Both the position numbers and the translations under genes were made by a program. Source: an uncultured Alphaproteobacteria bacterium (GTDB lineage: Bacteria; Pseudomonadota; Alphaproteobacteria; Rs-D84). From it: 64,000 bases of DNA. This document shows positions 19,837 to 27,104 of the stretch, in pieces (the first letter of the stretch is position 1; the number at the start of each line of letters is the position of its first letter). The notes beneath the pieces are model-generated. The model was given only the letters and a program-made list of their open reading frames with translations, was not told the DNA's origin and ran no database searches. The DNA lies in contig CALXLS010000001.1 in the NCBI GenBank assembly GCA_944389265.1, positions 82,359 through 146,358 on the forward strand. The letters are read 5' to 3'.

Positions 19837-19854
19837 AAATTGTGGAAGAATTTT

Positions 19855-19939
<85 letters not shown>

Positions 19940-19993
19940 ATTATGCACAAGCACGAACTTTTAAGCACGGCGGCACTACGCTTCGCTTCGTAG

Positions 19994-20012
19994 TCGCCAT
20001 ACCCGCATTATG
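19994..20012. repeat. 19-bp direct repeat of the tRNA-Leu 5' end plus its 5' flank
   Basis: TCGCCATACCCGCATTATG occurs at 19927-19945 (tRNA 5' end plus promoter-proximal bases) and again at 19994-20012. Confidence 0.6.
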
Positions 20013-20116
20013 TACATTACTTTACAAGCGCGTTTTTGTATATTATTATAAAATTTACTTGATTTCCAGTAAAATTTAACCTAAAATCCCCAACAGAATA
20101 ATAAAAGGTAGAAAAA

Positions 20117-20296
20117 ATGGCATCTAAAAAAGGCAGCAAAGAAGTTGTAAAGCTAGAAAATAAAGAAACTGGCTATTTCTACACAACTACAAAAAATACA
20201 AAGTCAGAAAATACTGCTGGCAAAATGAAATTCCGCAAATATGACCCAAAATTGCGTAAACATGTGGTCATGACAGAAGCAAAAATGCCTCACTAA
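20117..20296 (+). CDS. rpmG: 50S ribosomal protein L33
   Basis: 59 aa: MASKKGSKEVVKLENKETGYFYTTTKNTKSENTAGKMKFRKYDPKLRKHVVMTEAKMPH. Compare E. coli L33 …[32 protein letters not shown]…. Missed by the track because it is under 60 aa. Confidence 0.85.
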   Translation: MASKKGSKEVVKLENKETGYFYTTTKNTKSENTAGKMKFRKYDPKLRKHVVMTEAKMPH

Positions 20297-20393: not shown

Positions 20394-22625
20394 TTATTTT
20401 CCAAATTTACCACTACGCGGAAAACCAACTGGTATTGTTCTCCCCTGCGAAGCGCGTTTGCCAACCCATGGTTGCCAATCTTCTAGTTTTGTTGTCCCCC
20501 TACCCGTCGTCCAACCAAAACCATCCGCCGCATTAAAGAACATAACATCCAATACATAAGTTCTTTCCGCATTATATTTCTGTAATATCACACCTTTGCC
20601 ACGTGTCATCTCTGGTATTTCCGAGGTTGAAAATATCAACAACTTATCATTAGAACCAGATAACGCAACGCTGTCCCCAGACACAGGCACACACATTATC
20701 GCAGGATTCTTTGCATCTGTATTCATTACCTGCTTACCTGTACGGGTTTGCGCCAAACAATTTTCACCACTTACAATGAATCCTGTTCCATGACGACCAA
20801 CTAATAAATATTTAGCAGACGTATCCAAAACAAAAGCACTAACAATATTTTCATCCGCGCCAATATCTACCATCATTCTGACAGATTCACCAAAACCACG
20901 TGCAGACGGTAAATCATTTGCAGAAATAGTAAACATCTTGCCACCACTAGCAAATAAGTTCACCTTATCCGTAGACATAGTATGGAACGCAAACTGCAAT
21001 TCATCACCTTCTTTGAACTTCAAATCAAGATTATTCAAATCAAGATGCCCTTTGGCCGCACGAATCCAACCCATAGTAGACAATATTACCGTCAAAGGTT
21101 CTTTCTCTATAAATTCTTCGGCATTCACAACTATTTCTTCGATCTGTGGTACCCACTGAGTACGACGACGTCCCAATGCAGTTTTTTTATCATAACGCTT
21201 TTTAATATCTGCAAACCATGCCTTTAATTGCTCGTTCTGCATATCTTCGCTGGCTAGCAATTCTTGCAGTTGTTTCTGTTCTGCTAATAAAGCAGCATCC
21301 TCGCGGCGAATTTCCATTTCTTCCAATTTACGCAAAGAACGCAAACGAGTATTTAAAATTGCCTCTACCTGAACTTCTGTTAAATTAAACTCTGCAATTA
21401 AAACGGCTTTCGGGTCATCCTCGTTACGGATTATTTCTATTACCCTATCCAAATTTAAGTAAACAATTAATAACCCGCCTAAGATTTCCAACCTGCGGGC
21501 AATATTACCTAAGCGCCAATTCGTTCTGCGTATTAAAACATTCTTTTGATGTGCAATAAATTCACGCAGGACGTCACCTATTCCCATTACGCGTGGTGCC
21601 CCCTTAGAATCTATTACATTGAAGTTCATATTGAACTTATATTCCAAGTCAGTCATCGCAAATAAATGCGCCATCATCTTATCTGCAGGGACATTACGAC
21701 TTTTAGGCGTTATTACAATTCTGACATCTGTTGTTGATTCATCAGAAATATCATCTACTAACGGTAATTTCTTTGCGTCAATTAAATTAGCGATTTGTTC
21801 TACTAACTTAGATTTTATAATTCCATATGGGATTTCAGTTATAACTACCTGCTCTGCACCGCGGTCTAGTTTTTCAACTTCCCATTTTGCCCGAATTCTG
21901 AAAGCACCACGCCCAGTATCATAATTCTTTACAATTGTATCAAAAGAATCTATCAGAACACCACCTGTCGGAAAATCTGGACCAACAAGTTTTTTCATAA
22001 TCTGTGTAGTGGTCGCTTCTGGATTATCCACAACTAAAGACAAAGCATCACAAACTTCTGCCACATTATGAGTCGGGATATTTGTTGCCATACCAACGGC
22101 AATTCCCATACCACCGTTTGCCAATAAATTAGGGAAAGCACCAGGCATAACAGTAGGTTCAACGGTCGTCCCATCAAAATTGGGCATCATATCAACGCTA
22201 TCTTCATCAATGCCTTCCATAATCAGCATCGCAGCGTCGGTCATCTTAGATTCCGTATAACGATATGCTGCTTGTGGGTCGCCGTCTATATTACCAAAAT
22301 TCCCCTGTCCGTCAATCAATGGATAGCGTACAGAAAAATCCTGTGCCAGACGCACCATTGCATCATACACCGAAGAATCCCCGTGCGGATGATAATGCCC
22401 CAAAACGTCCCCAACAACCGTCGCACACTTACGAAAAGCCGCCGAAGGCGATAACTTCTGACGCAACATAGAATACAAAATTCTGCGGTGTACAGGCTTT
22501 AAACCGTCGCGAACATCAGGAAGTGCGCGAGATACAATTGTACTAACCGCATACGACAAATAACGTTCAGACAATGCGTCTGATAATTGCTGTGAATCTA
22601 TTCTTTCGATAATTTCTTTACTCAT
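20394..22625 (-). CDS. parC: DNA topoisomerase IV subunit A
   Basis: Start [10 protein letters not shown]. GyrA/ParC N-terminal motifs [18 protein letters not shown] and the catalytic AAYRYTES (Tyr). The C-terminal region is short and ParC-like rather than GyrA-like (no GyrA box recognised). About 743 aa. Confidence 0.8.
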
Positions 22626-22959
22626 GACAAGCAAAAATTTAAAACATTTCAAAAAAAATAACAACAGAAAAAATACTATTTCTAAGCAAAAAACTAACCT
22701 TTTTCAATTTTTTTCAACTTTTTTTCATTTTTTACTTGAAATTTTATTTTTTAAGATTATATGTATATACAAACTTTGGTTCCCTGATAAAGGGCGGGCT
22801 GCCAAAAAAAGTGGCAAGTCGGGGCTTGGTTTTATACGAAGTCTGAATGTACGTTGCAAATTGCTCTATTGCGACGAACCAATCAAAAAAAACATTAATA
22901 AAATATTAGGCTCACCGGTTAATCCCGGGGTGTCTGTTTGATTGCAAAGGAGGTAAAAA

Positions 22960-23694
22960 ATGGGTTTCAAACGCACAATTCCATATTTTTTAACAAGTGC
23001 GGCAATGATGTTTAATTTTGGTTATAGTTTAGGCGCACCAGAAAACTCTGAAACACAGAAAGAACCAAAATCCACAGAAAAAAACGTCAATATTCAACCT
23101 AAGGTTGAAAAAAATGATTCTGCAAACTATGAGTTGCTGGCACTTAATTCAAGCACCCCAAAAATCGCTGTGGACGCCATCGCACAAAACTATGATGTTG
23201 TATATACATTTTCTGATGGTGATAAATTAAAGCGTAGCGGTGGTACACGTGCATGGCGCAACAACAACCCCGGTTGCATAAGATATTCTAGTTTTGCTGT
23301 AGAACAAGGCGCAATCGGTAAAGCAGGTGGTTTCGCGGTTTTTCCAGACCAAGAAACAGGTAAAAATGCTTTAGCAGCACTTTTGCGTTCAAAAGGCTAT
23401 AGAAACCTTACCATTTCTGCGGCGATATTTAAATACGCCCCACCACATGAAAATAATACACAAAATTATAAAGCACGCATCAGAAAATTGACAGGTTTGT
23501 CCACAAGTATGAAATTATGCAATTTGACTGATGAACAAATTAATCGTGTTGTAGAAGCTATATGCATAATAGAAGGATGGCGCACAGGTAAAGAAATAAA
23601 CATCGAACAAATAAAACAACATCAACAGGCGATGACAGATACATCCAAATTGTATGCATTTATACAAAAACAAAACCGTCAGAATACCTTATAA
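22960..23694 (+). CDS. Secreted protein, paralogue A, with a conserved ~130-aa C-terminal domain of unknown function shared with the 25394-26455 product
   Basis: Strong SD AAGGAGG. Signal-peptide-like N-terminus. The C-terminal GGTRAWRNNNPGCIRYS…GFAVFPDQETGKNALAALLRSKGY…YAPPHENNTQNY…KLTGLS…EGWRTGKEI is paralogous to the second protein. Confidence 0.6.
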   Translation: MGFKRTIPYFLTSAAMMFNFGYSLGAPENSETQKEPKSTEKNVNIQPKVEKNDSANYELLALNSSTPKIAVDAIAQNYDVVYTFSDGDKLKRSGGTRAWRNNNPGCIRYSSFAVEQGAIGKAGGFAVFPDQETGKNALAALLRSKGYRNLTISAAIFKYAPPHENNTQNYKARIRKLTGLSTSMKLCNLTDEQINRVVEAICIIEGWRTGKEINIEQIKQHQQAMTDTSKLYAFIQKQNRQNTL

Positions 23695-23724
23695 AAAACG
23701 CGCTGTACGCGCGTTTTTAATTTA
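23694..23724. terminator. Bidirectional terminator between paralogue A and zapA
   Basis: AAAAAACGCGC-TGTA-CGCGCGTTTTT. Confidence 0.45.
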
Positions 23725-23992
23725 TCTTGTTCTTTATTTCCCTGATTCTTGCCAAAATCTCTTTTAAATCTGCATCAGTAACAGAAGGCGTCGATTTATT
23801 ATGAATTTCATCAGCCAAAACAATACACAACGTTGCTAACAAAGAACTTTCTGGCAAGGGACCTATTTTATCTAAAATCTCACGCGCACGCGCGTCCACC
23901 ATCTTACCCAGTTCTATCAAACGCGCTTCCTGACCATCCTCGCACCCCATAGGATAGTTCTTATTAACAATAGGTATAGATACTACACTCAT
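23717..23992 (-). CDS. zapA: Cell-division protein ZapA
   Basis: 91 aa, MSVVSIPIVNKNYPMGCEDGQEARLIELGKMVDARAREILDKIG…LLATLCIVLADEI. Follows the ZapA pattern (V.I.I.g..Y.l.C..GqE..L…A…D…) and overlaps by ATGA the upstream coiled-coil gene, as in alphaproteobacterial zauP-zapA operons. Confidence 0.55.
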   Translation of the reverse strand: MSVVSIPIVNKNYPMGCEDGQEARLIELGKMVDARAREILDKIGPLPESSLLATLCIVLADEIHNKSTPSVTDADLKEILARIREIKNKIN

Positions 23993-24198
23993 TTCAACTT
24001 CTTTAATATTGATATAGATTGATTTATCATTTCTGTCGCTTTTGCGTTCTTTTCACGCAAAGTTTTTACCTGCTCGGTTAAAATCGCAACTTCTAAATCA
24101 GTCTGTTTTCCCGCATTTACAGCCGTTGCACGCAAACGTGCAGCAGCATCTTCTAATGAACTTAATTCTTGAAATATTTGCTGTTTTATATCACCCAT
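23989..24198 (-). CDS. Small coiled-coil protein upstream of zapA (ZauP/ZapB-like, DUF4164-type)
   Basis: MGDIKQQIFQELSSLEDAAARLRATAVNAGKQTDLEVAILTEQVKTLREKNAKATEM…, about 69 aa. Heptad-rich and translationally coupled to zapA. Confidence 0.4.
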   Translation of the reverse strand: MGDIKQQIFQELSSLEDAAARLRATAVNAGKQTDLEVAILTEQVKTLREKNAKATEMINQSISILKKLK

Positions 24199-24281
24199 GT
24201 TTTTTAGTTTAAGATATTTTTTATATGCGTTCAACCCCAAAATGTGATATAATAATCGCATCTAGTGGGGGATATGTTTCT

Positions 24282-25376
24282 ATGAAGACTAAAATCATAT
24301 ATATTTCTGGCACCGAAATCTTTGATATGACTGATATTCGTGCGGCTTTTGATGAAGTTAGAATAACCTTAGGGTTGGATAAAAATACCGTTTTATTCGG
24401 TGTACCTGTTGATAACGACGATTCCTTATCCGCAGAAAATAATCTAGAAAAATCAGAAAATGAACATATTAAACAATTTTCTAACCAAGAAAACTTAAAA
24501 AACACCGCAGAAGAATTACCTCAAGATAATATTATTGAACCTGAAATAATAGAAATTACCGAAGAAAAAACTAAAAAAAGCACCGCTAAAAAGCCTCGTG
24601 GGCGTTCTGTCGCAAAATCTGTAATTGAACCCACTATCGAAGAAAATGTCGAAGAAGAACAAATAATAGAAGAAACTCCCAATATTCCTGCGGAAGAACC
24701 CCAAAAGGAAAACGAAGAAGAAAAAATTATACCTATCTTATCGATATTAGCAGCAAAAAAGGATGATACTGAACAAGATTTAAATTCTGCTTATGAACCA
24801 ATCGATTCCGAAGTTTCAGATGTTAAACAACCTGAAGAAACAAAAAAAGAAGAAAAACAACCAGAATCGATAACTGCGGATATTGATTTGAATGTGGAAC
24901 TTGATGTACCCGCAACTGCAGAAGACGAAAGCGAAATCCCTGCACAACGTGTCACCATTGAAGACATGATAACAGAAGATGCCCCCAGTGAACCTATTGA
25001 AAAAACATTGGAACAACTGTTAGAAAGTATGACACCTTTACGCGAAGATACTGTTGAAGAGCATTCTCATAATTCTCCTGCAAAAGAAGTGATAGACCTT
25101 GAAGAAACAGTCGAAGATTTTTCAGCAGATGCACCTGATGCGACACTGGAACAGTTAGCAGCAGAATTTGCAGAAACTGAAGACAAAATACCAACAGACA
25201 CAAAAACAGAAAATCACAGTAAAATCGGAAAATTAAAAAATATTCTGCCTTTTAAAAAAGCAAAACGAGATGACACGGGTTTAATGGGTGACTTGTTCGG
25301 TTGGGCAGGAATTGCTGCAAATGACGAAGAATTTTCTATTCCTGGATTTTTTACAAATGCCGCACAAAAAAAATAG
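24282..25376 (+). CDS. Highly acidic Glu/Pro/Lys-rich low-complexity protein (about 365 aa) with a short structured N-terminus
   Basis: GGGGGA precedes the ATG at 24282. N-terminus MKTKIIYISGTEIFDMTDIRAAFDEVRITLGLDKNTVLFGVPVD, followed by a long E/K/P/T-rich disordered region. C-terminus …LMGDLFGWAGIAANDEEFSIPGFF. Confidence 0.5.
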   Translation: MKTKIIYISGTEIFDMTDIRAAFDEVRITLGLDKNTVLFGVPVDNDDSLSAENNLEKSENEHIKQFSNQENLKNTAEELPQDNIIEPEIIEITEEKTKKSTAKKPRGRSVAKSVIEPTIEENVEEEQIIEETPNIPAEEPQKENEEEKIIPILSILAAKKDDTEQDLNSAYEPIDSEVSDVKQPEETKKEEKQPESITADIDLNVELDVPATAEDESEIPAQRVTIEDMITEDAPSEPIEKTLEQLLESMTPLREDTVEEHSHNSPAKEVIDLEETVEDFSADAPDATLEQLAAEFAETEDKIPTDTKTENHSKIGKLKNILPFKKAKRDDTGLMGDLFGWAGIAANDEEFSIPGFFTNAAQKK

Positions 25377-25393
25377 GCAAATTATGAGTCTTG

Positions 25394-26455
25394 ATGAACA
25401 TCGATACAATTCTTAGACTTTTAAAAAATTCTGGCTTCAATATACTTGGGTCAGATGGGACTTATTTATATTTAGAAGACCCGTCTTGCATTCTGCGCAG
25501 TTTTGAAACGTTCATTGAATACGCATGGATTGCTATTACCTGTATAACTGGTTTGCTGTTGTTCGGGTGGGCTATATCAATGATTCGAGGCGCAAAGAAC
25601 GATATATTTACAAATTTACGTAATTTGGTCCTAATTTTTGGAACTTTATCCGCGGTTATTCCTATTGTAAATACTATATGGGGTGAGGACATTTTTGCAC
25701 GTGGTTGCAGAACAATAAAAGTCCCTATCACAGAAGTAAACGAAATATTAAACGCAAGGAATTTAAAACTTTCTGAACGTAACGAATTCGATTTATATGA
25801 AGAATTTAATATTTATGATTCTGGTATACCTTATCTAAATAATCAACAATCTAACGAAATTCCTTATGCACAGGCACCGCTAATAGCACCAGATGTTCCA
25901 GAAGAAATTGAAGTTTCTGTATCCACAGACTCAAATACAATCCGCCCAAGCGCACAGATTATACAATCTGAAACAATAATTTCTGAAACATCCCATTCAA
26001 ATACAGTTCGTCGTCCAAATCGCGCACAAGAAATCTCAAAAGATGTCGTGTACACAAACCCTGACGGTACAAAACAAACAAAAACAGGTGGTAGCCGCGC
26101 ATGGAGAAATACAAACCCTGGCAATATCCGATATTCTGAATTTTCTCGTAGAATGGGCGCAATAGGTGAAGCCGGTGGATTTGCGGTTTTTCCAGATGAA
26201 GAAACTGGAATGCGCGCAATTAGAGAACTTTTACGAAGTGAAAGTTATAACAAGCTTACTGTAGCAGGCGCAATAAGCAGGTATGCACCACCTTCTGAAA
26301 ACAATACTTCTGCATACCATAGACAAATTCAAAAACTAACAGGACTGTCTATTAATAAAAGAATGAGTGATTTAAGCGATGCAGAATTATCTAGGGTGGC
26401 AAATGCAATAAAAGTTATTGAAGGTTGGAAACCCGGGAAAATAATAAATCAATAA
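25394..26455 (+). CDS. Membrane-anchored protein, paralogue B, carrying the same C-terminal unknown domain as 22960-23694
   Basis: N-terminal globular segment, two TM helices (IAITCITGLLLFGWAISMI; LVLIFGTLSAVIPIV), a Ser/Thr/Gln-rich linker, then GGSRAWRNTNPGNIRYS…GFAVFPDEETGMRAIRELLRSESY…YAPPSENNTSAY…KLTGLS…EGWKPGKII. Confidence 0.6.
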   Translation: MNIDTILRLLKNSGFNILGSDGTYLYLEDPSCILRSFETFIEYAWIAITCITGLLLFGWAISMIRGAKNDIFTNLRNLVLIFGTLSAVIPIVNTIWGEDIFARGCRTIKVPITEVNEILNARNLKLSERNEFDLYEEFNIYDSGIPYLNNQQSNEIPYAQAPLIAPDVPEEIEVSVSTDSNTIRPSAQIIQSETIISETSHSNTVRRPNRAQEISKDVVYTNPDGTKQTKTGGSRAWRNTNPGNIRYSEFSRRMGAIGEAGGFAVFPDEETGMRAIRELLRSESYNKLTVAGAISRYAPPSENNTSAYHRQIQKLTGLSINKRMSDLSDAELSRVANAIKVIEGWKPGKIINQ

Positions 26456-26465
26456 AGGATTGATT

Positions 26466-27104
26466 ATGGTTGACATCAAATCAGTAAATGAAAATAAAGG
26501 CTCTACTACTTTAACTGTATTATTAATAGTTATGCTGTTAATAATCGGTATATTAATCTATTTTCTTGCCGGCGGAAAAATACCAGAAAATAATAAACCT
26601 GCAATCGCAGTTGATTCCCCAAACCAAACTTTTGATACCGATATTCCTCAACGTAGCAGCACTTTTAATGATGGGCTTCGCAACCCTAATTTTTCAGAAC
26701 AATATGAATTAAATGAATTTGGTGAAGGTGTGGCTTCAAAAGAAATATTTGATATAGATATTAATGGAGACGGACATAAAGATAGAATAACCAAAACAAA
26801 AAATGAAAATGGAACGCCTCATTTTTATTACGAATACAAAATTGAATTAAACAACAACGGTACTTTTGTTGATATTACCCCGAACGGTTTTAGAACTACC
26901 GAAGGCGTTGAATGCGCTTTACAAAAACTACAGTTTATTTTCAAACCAGAATTTAGAATAATAAAAATATCCAGAAACTGGGAAGAAACTTGGGAAAACC
27001 CAACCATCGCCACCAAAACTGTTTATGCTTTTTCTGATGGGAATTTAAAAGAAATAAGCAAAACAGAAACAAAATCTGTTTGCGATGTTTCTGAACTATT
27101 TTAG
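26466..27104 (+). CDS. Single-pass membrane protein with a DxDxDG-like calcium-binding-type motif; unknown function
   Basis: AAAGGA SD. TM helix TTLTVLLIVMLLIIGILIYFLAGG. DIDINGDGHKDRI motif. Confidence 0.4.
   Translation: MVDIKSVNENKGSTTLTVLLIVMLLIIGILIYFLAGGKIPENNKPAIAVDSPNQTFDTDIPQRSSTFNDGLRNPNFSEQYELNEFGEGVASKEIFDIDINGDGHKDRITKTKNENGTPHFYYEYKIELNNNGTFVDITPNGFRTTEGVECALQKLQFIFKPEFRIIKISRNWEETWENPTIATKTVYAFSDGNLKEISKTETKSVCDVSELF

Follow-up and report, generated by a model that had tools for sequence, protein, structure and literature searches.

The endolysin of Hafnia phage Enc34 (ORF39) and M4Lys of Salmonella phage BSPM4 belong to the CDD family PHA02564, here referred to as the Enc34 type. 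The catalytic domain of ORF39 (ORF39deltaC; Protein Data Bank (PDB) 7Q47) is muralytic, lysing outer-membrane-permeabilised E. coli, P. aeruginosa, and H. alvei, and its residues W79, Y95, and E131 were proposed to be catalytic via superposition on GH73 and GH23 enzymes (PMC8943055). Here, we have assigned two paralogous proteins of an uncultured alphaproteobacterium, A and B, to the same catalytic-domain family. They are encoded close to zapA in a stretch of 64,000 nucleotides (contig CALXLS010000001.1, positions 82,359 to 146,358, of assembly GCA_944389265.1), which as a whole is called the window in the following. In contrast to the Enc34 endolysin, A and B are chromosomal, vertically inherited, and located outside any lysis cassette, and B comes with a partner of predicted CarG fold.

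In a colinear alignment of their C-terminal parts, A and B are 48% identical over 191 residues (E=8e-56), and a core of 136 residues of A shows 58% identity to B, far beyond chance; the paralogy named in the original prediction for this DNA is therefore borne out. The domain could not be placed at that time, and scans of A and B with Pfam and NCBIfam models indeed revealed no family. PHROGs and the sequences of the PDB did place it, however, and led to a characterised family, an outcome that had been named beforehand as refuting the prediction. The family phrog_873, annotated as “endolysin”, matched both A (E=5e-19) and B (E=2e-21), other PHROGs matches being to a tape-measure family and to a “tail injection transglycosylase” family, with the lysin domain alone being matched. 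In the PDB, the N-terminus of the 1295-residue phage protein Gp29 (9vvp) was found with E=2.8e-9 and the Enc34 catalytic domain (7q47) with E=0.006 (phmmer); a profile of 64 homologues gave E=1.2e-20 for 9vvp and E=8.2e-10 for 7q47, the latter over chain residues 10-132, from the RNNNPGNI motif through the Glu at chain position 132. Enc34 residues W79, Y95, and E131 correspond in the alignment to Y159, Y170, and E205, the candidate catalytic residues of A. The Glu and Y170 do not vary in any of the orthologues compared (54 of the A type and 54 of the B type), position 159 is Tyr or Trp, and the proposed catalytic residues are kept in all 54 of the B orthologues. Because of the profile match to 7q47, the phrog_873 match, and the aligned catalytic residues, the shared domain, as judged from sequence, belongs to the lysozyme-like catalytic domains of Enc34-type (PHA02564) endolysins. 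The vague likeness to peptidoglycan hydrolases and phage virion proteins that had been pointed out earlier was thus right, given the matches to phrog_873, 9vvp, and 7q47.

The family is large. At 50% identity, an exhaustive profile search returned 14,154 representatives, and 6,174 had E<=1e-10. Pfam and NCBIfam have no model for the Enc34-type family, and what is known of it comes essentially from one structural paper, so that most members carry the annotation “hypothetical”. Annotated relatives were found in K1F and other Kayfunavirus phages, where the domain forms the N-terminus of gp16-type internal virion proteins, in a 697-residue protein that occupies the tape-measure position in Acinetobacter phage Ab1-TPeters (42% identity), among stand-alone endolysins, as the “injection transglycosylase” of SSU5-like phage-plasmids, and in a Rhizobium plasmid protein with an additional CHAP domain. 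In long representatives, the domain is fused to RHS repeats, as their C-terminal tip, to Ntox44 and SH3, or to LysM and CHAP. The closest annotated relatives, with shared motifs, are the virion lysin domains (the K1F/Kayfunavirus gp16 “internal virion protein D”, Gp29 of 9vvp, and those of Ab1-TPeters and SSU5-like elements), which are parts of giant ejection or tape-measure proteins piercing the host wall from outside at infection, whereas A and B are small proteins of the cell itself and carry signals for export or anchoring.

The same catalytic domain also forms toxin tips, namely the C-terminal domains of RHS proteins and Tae5-Nt of Stenotrophomonas, an effector domain of the type VI secretion system that was likened to Enc34 (PMC13340143). 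A small downstream gene is apparently tied to the domain: a gene of the DUF4431 family (PF14485) was found directly downstream of it in two unrelated toxin-like contexts (L083:4814-5299 and L086:1963-2511), one on a deltaproteobacterial chromosome and one behind an RHS toxin tip. DUF4431 is therefore a likely candidate for the cognate immunity family of the Enc34-type lysin or toxin domain. In comparison with the toxin tips, A and B lack any delivery module, the partner resembles CarG and not DUF4431, and the locus is a syntenic part of the core genome.

All previously listed open reading frames of the locus were present as described; the features are, in order:

20394-22664: parC, the neighbour of A
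22960-23694, plus strand: A (paralogue A), an open reading frame of 244 residues
23694-23718, both strands: GC-rich perfect hairpin with A and T runs on its flanks, from the terminator scan
23717-23992, minus strand: zapA, 91 residues, Pfam PF05164
23989-24261 (start at 24198 in the calls of relatives), minus strand: open reading frame of a small coiled-coil protein, zauP-like by position
24282-25376, plus strand: open reading frame of the acidic protein, 364 residues, largely low-complexity
25394-26455, plus strand: B (paralogue B), an open reading frame of 353 residues with two hydrophobic segments
26466-27104, plus strand: open reading frame of the small protein, membrane-anchored and of predicted CarG fold, 212 residues with one transmembrane helix

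The window contains no copy of the shared domain besides those of A and B, and the GC content is level throughout the region. No phage genes were seen near the locus among the open reading frames of the window and their Pfam matches, its neighbours being parC, zapA, radC, map, holA, and lptE. In a scan of both strands, the hairpin at 23694-23718 came up as a terminator-like site for either direction, lying where A and zapA converge; no such site was found within the stretch from the acidic gene through B to the small gene. Since the hairpin splits A from zapA and no comparable site lies inside the acidic gene-B-small gene stretch, the layout is consistent with a monocistronic A and with an operon of the three genes diverging from zauP-zapA. 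The three-gene transcription unit suggested before is thus likely, also in view of the short gaps and of a gene order kept in about 60 genomes; the gaps themselves needed correction, to 17 nt (not 15) between the stop of the acidic gene and the start of B, and to 10 nt (not 8) between the stop of B and the start of the small gene. A promoter scan of the region gave fewer sites than shuffled sequence and was hence uninformative. At its 3' end, the small-protein gene converges with radC (minus strand), the two overlapping by 9 nt at 27096-27104. Matches of A, B, the acidic protein, and the small protein to BtpA, SLBB, DUF6120, and Cas11d in the Pfam, NCBIfam, and PADLOC scans were at chance level only and were rejected, and PADLOC returned nothing relevant for the proteins of the locus.

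A, B, and the small protein have their closest homologues in uncultured gut Alphaproteobacteria that bear the name Candidatus Enterousia. Inspection of the neighbourhood around zapA revealed that the block of parC, A, zapA-zauP, acidic gene, B, small gene, and radC-map-holA-lptE recurs in about 70 loci of Candidatus Enterousia-like metagenome-assembled genomes, its synteny persisting at identities of B down to about 40%; zapA of the relatives is 79-98% identical. The proposed bracketing of zapA by the two paralogues held in part: the zapA arrangement is conserved in relatives, but A is missing from the slot between parC and zapA in about 19 related loci and is found elsewhere, often still near parC, in others. 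Bracketing by A is a feature of a subclade, while the acidic gene-B-small gene unit beside zapA is the constant part. A and B are vertically inherited host genes on the core chromosome of small-genome gut Alphaproteobacteria; a closed chromosome of a related genome (L063, OZ007020.1) comprises 958,618 bp, and the genomes of the lineage are about 1 Mb in size. A neighbour-joining tree of the domain was uninformative on A-versus-B monophyly, the domain being short and the “outgroup” set holding many A and B orthologues.

Some further observations concern the surroundings of A. In L063, the B locus alone was found among the 80 best domain matches, which suggests that A is absent there. In other relatives, an unassigned open reading frame of 368-434 residues occupies the slot of A or lies just upstream (L007:4157-5293, L006:5668-6774, and L004:5469-6773); it has no Pfam match and is not present in the window. 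The parC gene is inverted relative to A and zapA in L037, L047, L053, L058, and L072, and A remains near parC where zapA lies elsewhere (L004, L040, and L056); together, these inversions and the persistence of A near parC point to a recurrent rearrangement breakpoint beside A. In the window, parC is preceded by rpmG (L33, identified by synteny with relatives) at 20117-20296 and by a plus-strand open reading frame of 79 residues (19840-20079), which is spurious, overlying the minus-strand tRNA-Leu(tag) gene at 19855-19939.

Though sharing their catalytic domain, A and B present it in two different formats. A consists of a signal-peptide-like leader (residues 1 to about 25), a low-complexity linker to about residue 68, the domain, and a C-terminal helix (residues 215-243), with the beta hairpin and the Enc34-type domain covering residues 78-215 (nucleotides 23191-23604). 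The signal peptide that had been assigned to A is weakly hydrophobic in the window, but the N-terminus is conserved and leader-like in the orthologues. Compared to the all-helical Enc34 domain, the model of A adds an N-terminal beta hairpin. The AlphaFold2 model displays a three-strand N-terminal sheet at residues 70-93 (23167-23238) and a beta hairpin at residues 120-127 (23317-23340); these extra beta elements may be the counterpart of the lysozyme-fold beta-lobe missing in Enc34.

B is composed of an N-terminal module (residues 1-145, nucleotides 25394-25828), a variable linker (146-215), and the Enc34-type domain (216-353, nucleotides 26039-26452). Its N-tail of 42 residues is acidic, with on average 2.7 Lys/Arg versus 6.2 Asp/Glu, and carries a conserved EDPxC; it is followed by a first transmembrane helix (about 43-65), a loop of 13 residues with a conserved IRGxK, and a second helix (about 79-98), the two hydrophobic segments (about 43-65 and 77-97) agreeing with the two transmembrane helices expected for B. 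The adjoining juxtamembrane segment is conserved, contains another conserved Cys, and ends in IxDSG, after which the variable linker of about 70 residues begins. With two transmembrane helices, the N-tail and the catalytic domain are on one side of the membrane. The acidic tail, the basic loop, and the same-side Cys pair, together with the coupling to a periplasmic partner, favour an N-out/C-out orientation, in which the domain of B would be periplasmic. A periplasmic location had been proposed for both domains; the conserved leader-like N-terminus of A agrees with it, while the placement of B is not established, its Lys/Arg counts being ambiguous. Compared to Enc34, the transmembrane module is N-terminal and followed by a long linker in B, or is replaced by a Sec leader in A. 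SpmX of Caulobacter, in the account of Randich et al. from 2019, is reportedly a co-opted GH24 phage lysin with a disordered linker and two transmembrane helices; in contrast, B is of the Enc34 type and not GH24, and its domain order is the mirror image.

The small protein encoded downstream of B is predicted to have a transmembrane helix (residues 14-34), a disordered segment (43-63), and a ten-strand beta domain (76-205) in a model with a pLDDT (predicted local distance difference test) of 86. This model places it in the fold of CarG (PDB 4O7J, PF21955), the carbapenem intrinsic-resistance protein of Pectobacterium, at a sequence identity of 15%. In comparison to CarG, it has an N-terminal transmembrane anchor and its gene is coupled to that of a glycosidase; no carbapenem biosynthesis (car) genes were seen among its conserved neighbours. 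It had been described as a membrane protein with a DxDxDG-like motif, and indeed a DxNxDGxxD loop (D98-I-N-x-D102-G-x-x-D106) is nearly invariant in 48 homologues, as C150 and C206 are fully. A PDB sequence search with the profile of the small protein gave nothing significant. A relationship to DUF4431 was rejected, with an hhalign probability of <1% against both the L083 and the L086 gene; this means that the small protein is not a generic immunity protein of this lysin family.

Its coupling to B is evident from 67 loci spanning the acidic gene to radC, of which 59 contain both the hydrolase domain of B and the small gene and eight contain neither, with no mixed case. The eight loci fall in four separate places on a neighbour-joining tree of Map, HolA, and RadC, and parsimony counted at least four joint-loss events in 99 of 100 bootstrap replicates. 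In all eight, B is cut about 10 residues past IxDSG, with differing tails, and the N-terminal module is a stand-alone gene of 152-174 residues (L037, L043, L047, L048, L050, L051, L064, and L075). Its survival alone in at least four independent lineages implies that the N-terminal membrane module of B (residues 1-145) has a separable, retained function. The co-variation shows that neither the hydrolase domain of B nor the small gene is kept alone, not how they interact. We infer that the small protein is a dedicated partner of B, namely a regulator, the simplest case being that of an inhibitor or gatekeeper.

Only gene position and a motif of the acidic protein suggest a link to cell division. 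ZapA itself matched Pfam PF05164 with E=1.3e-11, its residues 3-89 corresponding to profile positions 1-88 of 88. The zauP-like open reading frame overlaps the start of zapA by 4 nt, and a gene of 69 residues lies upstream of zapA in all relatives; it has no Pfam or NCBIfam match, its likeness to ZauP being one of position and size alone. In Caulobacter, zapA and zauP are adjacent (CCNA_03356/03357) (PMC7188993). The acidic protein starts with MKTKIIYISG at 24282, consists of 25% Asp and Glu, and has no hydrophobic segment, transmembrane helix, or signal peptide, and no Pfam, NCBIfam, or PADLOC family. Over 65 orthologues, about 45 N-terminal and about 50 C-terminal residues are near-invariant, whereas the acidic core between them differs both in length and in sequence. 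The near-invariant tail (25220-25376) reads GKIGKLKNILPFKKAKRDDxGLMGDLFGWAGIAANDDDFxIPGFFTxAASKK, and its DDDFxIPGFF..KK has the core I-P-x-F-[LF] in common with DYLDIPAFLRKQAD, the tail of E. coli FtsZ, of which I374 and L378 are critical residues (PMC4117426); the likeness is to be read as a resemblance only. The FtsZ-type tail motif, D-x-x-x-I-P-x-F-L-[RK], is one that binds FtsA, ZipA, or similar partners. Among 80 open reading frames of the window, the motif expression matched the acidic protein alone. There is no ftsZ in the window.

With moderate confidence, we consider A and B to be host peptidoglycan glycosidases which would cleave the cell's own sacculus, B doing so with its CarG-fold partner. 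A would be exported through its Sec-type leader and act as a soluble periplasmic enzyme, while the catalytic domain of B would be held at the inner membrane by the N-terminal two-helix module and the flexible linker of about 70 residues. B would be co-transcribed with the upstream cytoplasmic acidic protein and the downstream membrane-anchored, periplasmic CarG-fold protein, which as its dedicated partner would regulate it, and the unit may control how the sacculus is cut as cells grow and/or daughter cells separate in this lineage, whose genomes are about 1 Mb in size. Direct support covers the domain homology, the fold, the conservation of the catalytic residues, the operon and its synteny, and the coupling of the CarG-like protein to the hydrolase; enzymatic activity on the own wall, the periplasmic domain of B, the sign of the CarG-like effect, and a role specific to division are what we infer from these. 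The Enc34-type domain itself is already known, while new are its host-encoded use in two formats in a reduced-genome lineage, the N-terminal membrane module, the CarG-fold partner, and the conserved acidic protein.

Several points weigh against this reading. The catalytic residues of Enc34 rest on superposition and not on mutagenesis, and the Lys/Arg counts of B are ambiguous, so that two transmembrane helices could also put its domain in the cytoplasm. The Pfam model of CarG-like proteins (PF21955) scored the small protein with 17.3 bits, below its gathering cut-off of 28, and matched 14 of the 48 homologues at E<=0.01 (best 5e-4), all of them sub-threshold. The hydrolase domain of B and the small gene being adjacent, each joint loss may be a single deletion. 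A is present in all eight loss loci; since the loci of the relatives were retrieved via the domain itself, this is no evidence of redundancy, and it does not justify a rule that a copy is retained in every case. Finally, the division link rests on gene position in genomes with generally frozen synteny.

A bolder form of our reading, which we regard as unlikely, takes the acidic-B-CarG-fold unit to be a divisome-coupled module for septal peptidoglycan cleavage and CarG-fold proteins in general to be regulators or inhibitors of peptidoglycan glycosidases. The acidic protein would dock on Z-ring anchors via its FtsZ-tail-like C-terminus, the N-terminal module of B would relay the signal across the membrane, and the CarG-fold protein would gate the tethered glycosidase. 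If this were true, the intrinsic carbapenem resistance conferred by CarG could stem from restrained autolysis.

Serving as a toxin elsewhere, the domain might also form a toxin-immunity or self-protection pair with the small protein in the case of B, A then being an orphan effector. This is likewise improbable, as the Pfam scan of A and B revealed no delivery domain (RHS, PAAR, VgrG, LXG, or XVIPCD) and B has a two-helix anchor of its own. Unlike variable toxin islands, the locus keeps its gene order in about 70 genomes, where it lies amid housekeeping genes and is passed on vertically; in clear toxin contexts the domain is paired with DUF4431, to which the small protein is unrelated, and no immunity-like gene adjoins A.

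B could furthermore be a co-opted, catalytically attenuated lysin serving as a scaffold or localisation module in the manner of SpmX instead of cleaving peptidoglycan, possibly cytoplasmic and acting with the acidic protein at the division site. SpmX, in the study of Randich et al. from 2019, is said to be a phage lysin turned core alphaproteobacterial developmental gene. The N-tail and the C-terminal domain of B are on the same side, an N-in/C-in orientation is left possible by the Lys/Arg counts, and the upstream partner is cytoplasmic with its FtsZ-tail-like C-terminus. However, the proposed catalytic residues are strictly conserved in B, its paralogue bears an export leader, and the partner with which it co-varies is a membrane protein of type II whose two Cys are invariant, which is typical of the periplasm; the acidic N-tail, the IRGxK loop, and the two conserved Cys of the N-tail and the C-terminal side favour N-out/C-out. 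A scaffold thus appears quite improbable to us.

Lastly, that the three genes are a remnant or domesticated phage lysis cassette for programmed lysis or the release of vesicles or particles is very improbable: Enc34-type endolysins do pair the catalytic domain with a two-helix transmembrane domain between small membrane proteins (PMC8943055) and the closest annotated relatives are phage proteins, but there are no phage genes nearby, the block is conserved lineage-wide beside zapA, radC, and map, the order of transmembrane and catalytic parts is opposite to Enc34, the small protein is predicted to have a beta-rich CarG fold and to be neither spanin nor holin, and PADLOC gave nothing relevant while PHROGs matches were restricted to the lysin domain.

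Read as host glycosidases, A and B make the locus a case of an Enc34-type domain serving as a core host gene, in two export formats, in a gut lineage with reduced genomes. The pair is tractable for asking how a phage-type lysin gets tamed for housekeeping, and the coupling to B is a first functional lead on CarG-fold proteins. The candidate DUF4431 immunity proteins and the candidate CarG-like regulator are of interest for enzybiotics and for reading effectors of the type VI secretion system and of RHS proteins. The division link, if true, would mean that Alphaproteobacteria have a further, new way of controlling septal hydrolases.

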